Shown here piece by piece: positions 31,796 through 32,363 of a stretch of DNA of 35,772 nucleotides; the stretch's first letter is position 1; each line of letters starts with the position of its first letter. The notes under the pieces were generated by a model. It was not told the DNA's origin and ran no database searches. It was given only the letters and a program-made list of their open reading frames with translations. Both the position numbers and the translations under genes were made by a program. Source of the DNA: a phage; assembly GCA_019566835.1 (NCBI GenBank), contig GCA_019566835.1_3045.2, one strand, 5' to 3'.

Positions 31796-31960
31796 TTACT
31801 CTTCTTTTTCTTTAGATTCCTCTTTTTTCTTTTTAGGAATCTGCTCAGGACCTTTATTTACTACAGCGCCTGACGTTGTTCCAGTAGAGATATTTTCAGG
31901 ATTACCACCTGAATCTCCAGCGACCATATCTTCTTTAATAAATTCTTTATATGTTTTCAT
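31796..31960 (-). CDS. Small hypothetical protein (54 aa; 61.1 position)
   Basis: MKTYKEFIKEDMVAGDSGGNPENISTGTTSGAVVNKGPEQIPKKKKEESKEKEE; stop 2 nt before the gene 61 ATG. Confidence 0.45.
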   Translation of the reverse strand: MKTYKEFIKEDMVAGDSGGNPENISTGTTSGAVVNKGPEQIPKKKKEESKEKEE

Positions 31961-32005
31961 ATTAACCTCTATTCATAAAAGCATTAAAAATTTGGTCATC
32001 AATAG
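31958..32005. repeat. Direct repeat copy 1 (gene-junction cassette, about 48 bp)
   Basis: CATATTAACCTCTATTCATAAAAGCATTAAAAATTTGGTCATCAATAGA is about 92 percent identical to the copy at 32316-32363. Confidence 0.8.
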
Positions 32006-32318
32006 ATGGCGCAGTAATATTTTCTGCATCATTTAGTAAATCATTAATTTCATCAGATAGCATAACACATGTACCTTTATTTCCTGTAATTGTTACTGCA
32101 CAATTACGAACGTTTTCTTTATCAAATTTTAGGTTAATATTTTCGTAGTGAAAATCCTTTAATGCCGAATATATCTTTAAAATGAAATTGTCTTTTACTA
32201 CAATAAACCCAACCTCACTATTAAAACGCGGTTCATGGAAACTGTAATAAACCTTTTCATCTATAAAATCGTATGAAATTTTTTCCATTTTTAAATATGA
32301 AAATTCAGAACTATACAT
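31962..32318 (-). CDS. Hypothetical protein (118 aa; 61.x position)
   Basis: C-terminal 14 aa SIDDQIFNAFMNRG are shared with the upstream 210-aa gene. Confidence 0.6.
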   Translation of the reverse strand: MYSSEFSYLKMEKISYDFIDEKVYYSFHEPRFNSEVGFIVVKDNFILKIYSALKDFHYENINLKFDKENVRNCAVTITGNKGTCVMLSDEINDLLNDAENITAPSIDDQIFNAFMNRG

Positions 32319-32363
32319 ATTAACCTTTATTCATAAAAGCATTAAAAATTTGATCGTCAATAG
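32316..32363. repeat. Direct repeat copy 2 (gene-junction cassette)
   Basis: CATATTAACCTTTATTCATAAAAGCATTAAAAATTTGATCGTCAATAGA. Confidence 0.8.

Follow-up and report, generated by a model that had tools for sequence, protein, structure and literature searches.

A 49-nt direct repeat at the 3' ends of two tandem AdfA-family genes in a T4-like phage and the gene indel that it bounds

In a T4-like phage, a 49-nt direct repeat is probably the conserved 3' end of two tandem AdfA paralogs, and recombination at this repeat probably adds or removes the smaller of the two genes. The window, which is the whole 35.8-kb stretch of DNA analysed here, comes from a Tequatrovirus and is 99.9% identical to phage teqdroes over the region. 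The minus-strand gene order is as in T4: 41 (helicase), dmd, 61.4 (tifA), sp, 61.2, the 118-aa gene, 61.1, and 61 (primase). It has been proposed that the interval from dmd through tifA to adfA makes up an anti-TA island (PMC9391042).

In the preferred reading, the two-domain adfA/61.2 and the single-domain 118-aa gene are ancient paralogs that stand in tandem within the anti-TA island between 41 and 61. Selection at the protein level keeps their C-terminal tail across several genera, and the gene bodies diverged long ago. Homologous recombination between the near-identical tails would delete the 118-aa cassette in frame, or insert it through donor crosses. Such exchange would yield T4-type genomes, in which 61.2 is followed directly by 61.1, and two-gene genomes, which carry both genes. 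The same exchange, or gene conversion, would hold the two tail DNAs nearly identical within Tequatrovirus.

The repeat and the two genes that it ends

A repeat search of the window places the direct repeat at 31958-32006 and 32316-32364. The two copies are 49 nt long and 46/49 (94%) identical, and their starts are 358 nt apart. The first-pass annotation had reported a direct repeat of about 48 bp with about 92% identity. That repeat is real, with 45 of 48 positions matching at its coordinates, and its extent is refined here to 49 nt. It is not a product of chance: with up to three mismatches allowed, the 49-mer occurs at exactly two sites in the window, compared with 0.00 expected from 100 dinucleotide shuffles. 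The edges of the repeat are sharp, and the 30 nt flanking it on each side match at 11/30 and 9/30 positions.

Read on the minus strand, each copy spans a whole gene junction, as had been proposed. It contains the last 14 codons of a gene (SIDDQIFNAFMN-R/K-G), a TAA stop, one spacer base, and the ATG of the next gene. The upstream copy (32316..32364, minus strand) is the junction from 61.2/adfA to the 118-aa gene, and its 14 codons are SIDDQIFNAFMNKG. The downstream copy (31958..32006, minus strand) is the junction from the 118-aa gene to 61.1, and its 14 codons are SIDDQIFNAFMNRG. The 118-aa and 210-aa proteins have a common C-terminus, also as proposed, in that the same 14-residue tail ends both.

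The upstream gene is 61.2, or adfA (anti-DarT factor A; 32320..32952, minus strand), which encodes 210 aa. Its product is a full-length member of Pfam PF23813 (461.7 bits, profile positions 1-211, gathering threshold 27) and of phrog_3781. Record PV857777 annotates 61.2 as AdfA. The AF2 model of 61.2, which is of moderate confidence (pLDDT 68, compared with 72 for the 118-aa protein), has two tandem beta5-alpha units, a linker, and a C-terminal tail helix. The N-terminal and C-terminal halves of 61.2 show suggestive sequence similarity (p ~0.03). An internal duplication within 61.2 is suggestively supported by the topology of the AF2 model, which is of moderate quality.

AdfA (gp61.2) of T-even phages is the anti-DarT factor A of LeRoux et al. 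2022, as that work is summarised in PMC11257639 and PMC9391042. AdfA binds DarT1, and residue 164 decides neutralisation (PMC11257639). DarT1 is neutralised by RB69 AdfA(R164H) and also by the T4 allele when this is expressed ectopically (PMC11257639). The position equivalent to RB69 residue 164 is Arg164 in RB69, His165 in T4, Asn167 in the window AdfA, and Asn72 in the 118-aa protein. The two Asn codons are at 32452-32454 (codon 167 of 61.2/adfA) and 32103-32105 (codon 72 of the 118-aa gene), both on the minus strand. The active alleles have His at this position, whereas both window proteins have Asn. His is also present in nearly all other 61.2 clusters retrieved. The window type of 61.2 allele (Asn167) and the T4 type (His) are only 73% identical.

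The 118-aa gene (31962..32318, minus strand) encodes a single-domain AdfA-family protein of the RB32ORF033c type (phrog_4122) that is homologous to the C-terminal half of 61.2. The first-pass annotation had called the two genes otherwise unrelated, and this does not hold. In BLASTP, residues 21-118 of the 118-aa protein match residues 111-210 of 61.2 with 37% identity (E=6e-11). The 118-aa protein also scores above the gathering threshold of PF23813, with 31.9 bits over profile positions 113-211 only, and the phrog_3781 and phrog_4122 families cross-match reciprocally. When the tail is removed, the BLASTP match is still significant (E=1.4e-4). The tail-less Smith-Waterman score is 65, compared with 31.5 +/- 5.6 for shuffled sequences (z ~6), and 0 of 2000 shuffles reach it. 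The homology is therefore independent of the 14-aa tail.

The predicted structures agree with this relationship. Both AF2 models have a b-b-b-b-b-a unit in common, followed by a low-confidence linker and a short C-terminal tail helix. The model of the 118-aa protein has one beta5-alpha unit, an extra helix, and the linker and tail helix as in 61.2. The two-unit architecture (~208-216 aa) is found in the 210-aa protein, whereas the 118-aa protein corresponds to the C-terminal half only and has one of the two domains, as known here from sequence and model. A search for a solved structure or fold relative found none. The 2006 annotation of RB32 already describes ORF033c as 'similar to gp61.2', and both AdfA-family genes lie downstream of sp in the 41-61 interval of Tevenvirinae. 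Judged by sequence, the 118-aa protein is a half-length paralog of 61.2/AdfA. It is probably another toxin-binding counter-defence factor, with a tail-mediated function in common with AdfA.

T2 has been described as lacking adfA and as resisting DarTG1 through AdfN (PMC11257639). T2 carries a 118-type AdfA-family paralog. In T2 record NC_054931 (locus L004, 1956-2619), the 118-type gene is annotated '61.2' and is given 108 aa from an internal Met. The sp gene in the same record has an extra A and is shortened to 92 aa.

Age of the gene pair and conservation of the C-terminal tail

Outside the tail, 8 of the 25 residues that are identical between 61.2 and the 118-aa protein use the same codon. 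The duplication is ancient because the homologous bodies are saturated at synonymous sites. Phages of the VR25 type contain an ortholog of the 118-aa protein that is 46-49% identical and forms a tandem pair with a second gene that bears the tail. The existence of this pair suggests an old two-gene state.

The tail was compared across genera in 31 IMG/VR loci anchored on gene 61.1. It is 14 residues long, with the pattern S[IV]DDQIFNAFM[NK]RG, and it ends proteins of different sizes at this locus in at least four Tevenvirinae genera. The tail-ending proteins between sp and 61.1 are of the 61.2 type (208-219 aa, RB69-like loci included), the 118 type (117-119 aa, VR25-like loci included), or the JS98 type (146 aa). 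VR25-like phages contain a tandem pair of 146-type and 118-type proteins, both of which end in the tail. With a final Gly or Asp allowed (S[IV]DDQIFNAFM[NK]R[GD]), the pattern ends all of these proteins. The shorter form DDQIFNAFM[NK]R[GD] ends proteins of 146, 117-125, and 212-219 aa, and degenerate forms of the tail are found on proteins of 111, 126, and 138 aa. When 1.84 billion representatives were searched exhaustively with HMMER, only 10 family members were found. Three of these ten (119, 120, and 125 aa) add to the single-domain proteins; their bodies differ greatly and their tail is the same.

The peptide is constant between genera and its synonymous codons vary (TCT/TCA, CAA/CAG, GCT/GCC/GCA, AGA/CGA). 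Long-term conservation therefore acts at the protein level. As far as these loci indicate, the shared end is a pre-existing, selected family motif that recombination would exploit, and not the product of an event at this locus. The predicted form of the tail is an amphipathic helix carried by a flexible linker (tail pLDDT ~50).

These results bear on the origin that had first been proposed for the repeat, namely that it is the footprint of a recent insertion of an unrelated 118-aa gene or of a recent duplication of part of the locus. Such an origin is very unlikely. It would fit the 94% identity and sharp edges of the repeat, the polymorphism of relatives for the 118-aa gene, and an indel of exactly one repeat period. 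However, the two genes are homologous outside the repeat and saturated at synonymous sites, which places the duplication in the distant past. The same tail also ends different proteins in VR25-, JS98-, and RB69-type phages with other synonymous codons, so it predates any event at the level of Tequatrovirus, and the 118-type ortholog is already present in VR25-type phages.

Within Tequatrovirus, the tail DNAs are more alike than the peptide requires. In the window pair, 10 of 12 tail codons are the same, compared with 8 of 25 in the body (Fisher one-sided p=0.004). From codon usage, 6.6 of 12 would be expected (P(>=10)=0.035), and in RB32 all 12 of 12 are the same (P ~5e-4). A force beyond peptide selection therefore keeps the tail DNAs alike in this genus. 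The most economical account of the excess identity, which concerns 12 codons, is exchange between the copies; a nucleotide-level element is the alternative.

The identity could also be passive, the result of peptide selection and AT-rich codon bias, with no recombinational role for the repeat. The peptide is conserved throughout the family, all of the tail codons are the preferred AT-rich ones, and an agreement of 6.6 in 12 codons is already expected from codon usage. This account is nevertheless highly improbable: the agreement in the window pair and in RB32 exceeds that expectation, the body of the same gene pair lacks it, both edges of the indel fall at the repeat, and one genome has a chimeric junction.

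A tail-only profile search of 5.8 billion proteins returns eight candidates, all of them fragments from the same phage family, and the tail may also occur in other contexts. Tail-less families were compared by hhalign (61.2 N half, 61.2 C half, 118, 146, 126, 111, and 138 aa). In these alignments, which are too shallow to be informative, only the 126-aa and 111-aa families are linked (E=2e-5). Beyond the tail, any homology of the 146-aa protein of the JS98 type is putative.

Gene content among relatives and the 358-bp indel

In the phage collection, 299 records contain the DNA that is unique to the 118-aa gene. In 326 records 61.2 is linked to 61.1, with or without the 118-aa gene in between, and in about 141 records sp is followed directly by the 118-aa gene. 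The last arrangement defines the T2-type, which carries the 118-aa gene only. There are roughly 170 T4-type, 160 two-gene, and 140 T2-type records; these counts are approximate and include some RefSeq/GenBank duplicates. All three gene contents are thus common among relatives.

The T4-type phages sutha and SCS4 and the two-gene phage 310Ecol104PP share the same 61.2 allele. Their alignment contains a single gap of exactly 358 columns, which is bounded by the repeat and has flanks that are 96-98% identical. The indel unit (32007..32364, minus strand) is made up of the 118-aa gene body and one repeat copy. It had been suggested that the repeats could mediate deletion of the 118-aa gene, and this suggestion is supported by T4-type and two-gene genomes that differ by exactly 358 repeat-bounded base pairs.

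The three variable sites of the repeat support its role as a recombination joint. In window-type genomes, these sites read C,T,A in the upstream copy and T,C,G in the downstream copy. T4 and most T4-type genomes read T,C,G. The single junction of sutha reads C,T,G and is a chimera of the upstream and downstream variants. A crossover within the 25 identical bases that separate the second site from the third is expected to give this product. Among relatives, the 61.2 alleles and the 118 alleles occur in mixed combinations. This genome comparison points to crossover at the repeats, and either deletion or insertion would fit any given lineage. The case for gene conversion between the tails is weak, as the sites in question are two synonymous C/T positions at which mutation could recur. 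For efficient recombination in T4, Singer et al. 1982 reportedly found a threshold close to 50 bp. In experiments, T4 has amplified and deleted this region by recombining at homologies far shorter than the repeat (PMC9391042).

The T2-type genomes are not congruent with this pattern. They retain only the last ~14 nt of the junction after the sp stop, where sp (spackle; 32954..33247, minus strand, in the window) is followed by this remnant and then by the 118-aa gene. A search of the T2-type junction for microhomology found no clean one. The T2-type genomes are therefore not products of the 49-nt repeat.

Two further kinds of apparent duplication were rejected. In Yersinia phage phiD1 (HE956711, locus L038, 1367-1561), a second copy of the 118-aa gene and a 33-aa fragment are an assembly artefact, marked by Ns and an Illumina adapter remnant (GATCGGNNGANCNNANNTNTGAACTNNAG); a genuine double copy would have shown unequal crossover directly. 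Nor do the 33-aa ORFs that bear the tail (P0031-33, FL12) represent partial duplications; they are truncated calls, made where a 1-nt loss in an A-run affects the 118-aa gene. In FL12 (PP400786, locus L045, 1763-2119), one A is lost from the run (GGAAAAAATTT -> GGAAAAATTT) and only the 33-aa ORF is annotated. The 33-aa ORF cluster P0031 is recorded on 17 contigs. A loss of the FL12 type could be a real pseudogene or a homopolymer sequencing error.

The 49-bp repeat would explain a common three-state polymorphism among therapeutic and model T4-like phages, except for the T2-type state, which does not come from the repeat. Stocks of two-gene phages may segregate 358-bp deletion variants.

Junction signals, known systems, and neighbouring genes

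Each junction contains a ribosome-binding signal within the end of the preceding gene. The Shine-Dalgarno sequence GAGG of 61.1 (31966..31969, minus strand) lies in the Arg-Gly codons (AGA GGT) of the 118-aa gene, and the Shine-Dalgarno-like AAGG of the 118-aa gene (32324..32327, minus strand) lies in the Lys-Gly codons (AAA GGT) of 61.2. Both are 5 nt before the ATG, and the gap between stop and start is one base. From the sequence layout, the short gap and the position of the signals imply translational coupling. The R-G-stop-N-ATG layout is also found in JS98-, VR25-, and RB69-type loci, where the downstream genes are different. Across relatives, the variable A/G site of the repeat (Lys or Arg) mostly tracks the downstream gene, because the Arg/Lys-Gly codons double as the Shine-Dalgarno sequence of that gene.

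The junctions also contain a promoter-like sequence. A MotA-box-like TGCTTT and a -10-like TAATAT form a predicted middle promoter at 31959..31986 (minus strand), with a second copy at 32317-32344. The arrangement, TAATGCTTTT followed by 12 nt and TAATAT, fits the MotA middle-promoter consensus quoted in PMC1524935 ((a/t)(a/t)(a/t)TGCTTtA, N11-13, TAnnnT) except for the final A of the Mot box. A DNA or RNA regulatory element made up of this promoter together with the Shine-Dalgarno sequence and start codon could keep the copies identical in place of recombination. The annotation of phage Lutter predicts a 'promoter' at both junctions. A relaxed MotA-box/-10 pattern occurs five times on the coding strand, compared with 0.72 by chance, and two of the five sites are the junctions. 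The spacing of GAGG/AAGG before the ATG and the conservation of the stop-start layout across genera are also in keeping with an element of this kind.

Several results make such an element unlikely as the cause of the identity. The strict consensus WWWTGCTTYA is not present at the junctions, and the box is not conserved beyond the genus: TGCATTT stands here in RB69, a phage with MotA (PMC1524935), and TGCCTTT in JS98-/VR25-type phages. The TAATAT -10 overlaps the next start codon, so a transcript from it would lack the start of the next gene. The Shine-Dalgarno sequence accounts for the last ~10 nt only. No sigma-70 promoter-like site is found at either junction (14 in the region, compared with 10.3 expected), nor is any terminator-like site (0) or Rfam match. 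The two junction copies do not have an RNA fold in common (z = -2.4 and 0.0). The T4 records in the phage collection are without promoter features. The RNA of the downstream junction (31940-32030, minus strand) has a possible hairpin, UCUAUU/AAUAGA, just before the Shine-Dalgarno sequence (z=-2.4). The upstream copy reads AAUAAA and is without the hairpin (z=0.0). The downstream-only hairpin may be due to chance.

Exchange at the selected tail, which is the preferred reading, resembles known forms of plasticity in T4-type phages. The nearest mechanism on record is the modular shuffling of PeSL cassettes (2010, PMC2839356; Comeau et al. 2014, PMC4122927), in which short conserved repeats also flank small non-essential genes in a hyperplastic region, recombination inserts or deletes whole gene cassettes between close relatives, and the repeats bound the indels. 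Unlike the PeSL, the 49-nt repeat is protein-coding (C-terminal peptide, Shine-Dalgarno sequence, and start codon) rather than intergenic, it is without a sigma-70 early promoter and a stem-loop terminator, and in-frame exchange at it would swap protein 'heads' before a constant tail. A second parallel is the amplification and deletion that T4 undergoes around dmd-tifA when short homologies recombine (Srikant et al. 2022, PMC9391042). Those events and the 358-bp indel fall in the same anti-TA island and involve gain or loss of counter-defence genes via direct repeats. They differ in that the former use 2-10 bp microhomologies in the laboratory, whereas the repeat of the window is 49 bp long, conserved, and segregating in natural populations.

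Tandem arrays of paralogous counter-defence genes are known from other phages, as in anti-CRISPR and anti-RM islands. The AdfA pair is similar to these arrays in its small, fast-diverging inhibitor genes and in presence/absence variation between close relatives. It differs in that an invariant C-terminal motif and a translationally coupled junction are kept and the rest diverges. A feature of this kind is an ordinary outcome in a highly recombinogenic phage whose tandem paralogs have a common end under selection. The half-length AdfA paralog (in T2 too), the family-wide tail, and the in-frame cassette indel are modestly new. They refine a known family and a known mode of genome plasticity and do not overturn current understanding.

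A broader reading, which is possible though doubtful, treats the AdfA locus as a site of in-frame cassette exchange. A constant 3' module (tail helix, Shine-Dalgarno sequence, and next start) would follow swappable toxin-binding heads, the tail would have a common function, every head would stay linked to coupled expression of the following gene, and the 118-aa protein would be a second active anti-toxin. The heads would include the two-domain 61.2, the 118-aa type, the JS98 type of 146 aa, and others, which homologous recombination would swap, stack, or drop. If this were true, the 118-aa protein in ~300 sequenced phages, including T2, would have its own specificity. Few phage inhibitors of DarT toxins have been characterised, and AdfA is among them. 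A half-length paralog adjoins adfA, or replaces it in T2-type phages, in the same ~300 genomes and is an overlooked candidate counter-defence gene. The invariant tail offers a handle for asking what the tail binds.

Several observations concern the neighbouring genes. Gene 61.1 (31796..31960, minus strand; 54 aa) is the downstream neighbour and has its start codon and Shine-Dalgarno sequence inside the downstream repeat copy. In teqdroes, Phaginator, the JLBYU phages, and others, gp61.1 is labelled 'major capsid domain-containing protein' or 'putative major capsid protein', which is most likely a propagated annotation error for a protein of 54 aa. More distant phages have 61.1 as the C-terminal part of a longer protein, of 154-164 aa. 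Between gene 56 (dCTPase) and gene 61, a 66-aa ORF that is membrane-protein-like lies on the opposite strand (30568-30768, plus strand). It occupies the position at which T4 has the dam methyltransferase gene, and dam is absent there.

The longest ORF of 61.4/tifA (33308-33607, minus strand) starts with TTG and overlaps dmd. Relatives annotate 85 aa from an internal ATG, and the 99-aa ORF listed here is probably too long. In JS98-/VR25-type loci (L011-L018, ~3094-3318, plus strand), the gene immediately downstream of the tail-bearing one encodes a 61.4/TifA paralog of 73 aa (35-41% identity, E ~1e-12). Duplication in the JS98-/VR25-type genera may therefore extend to other members of the anti-TA island.
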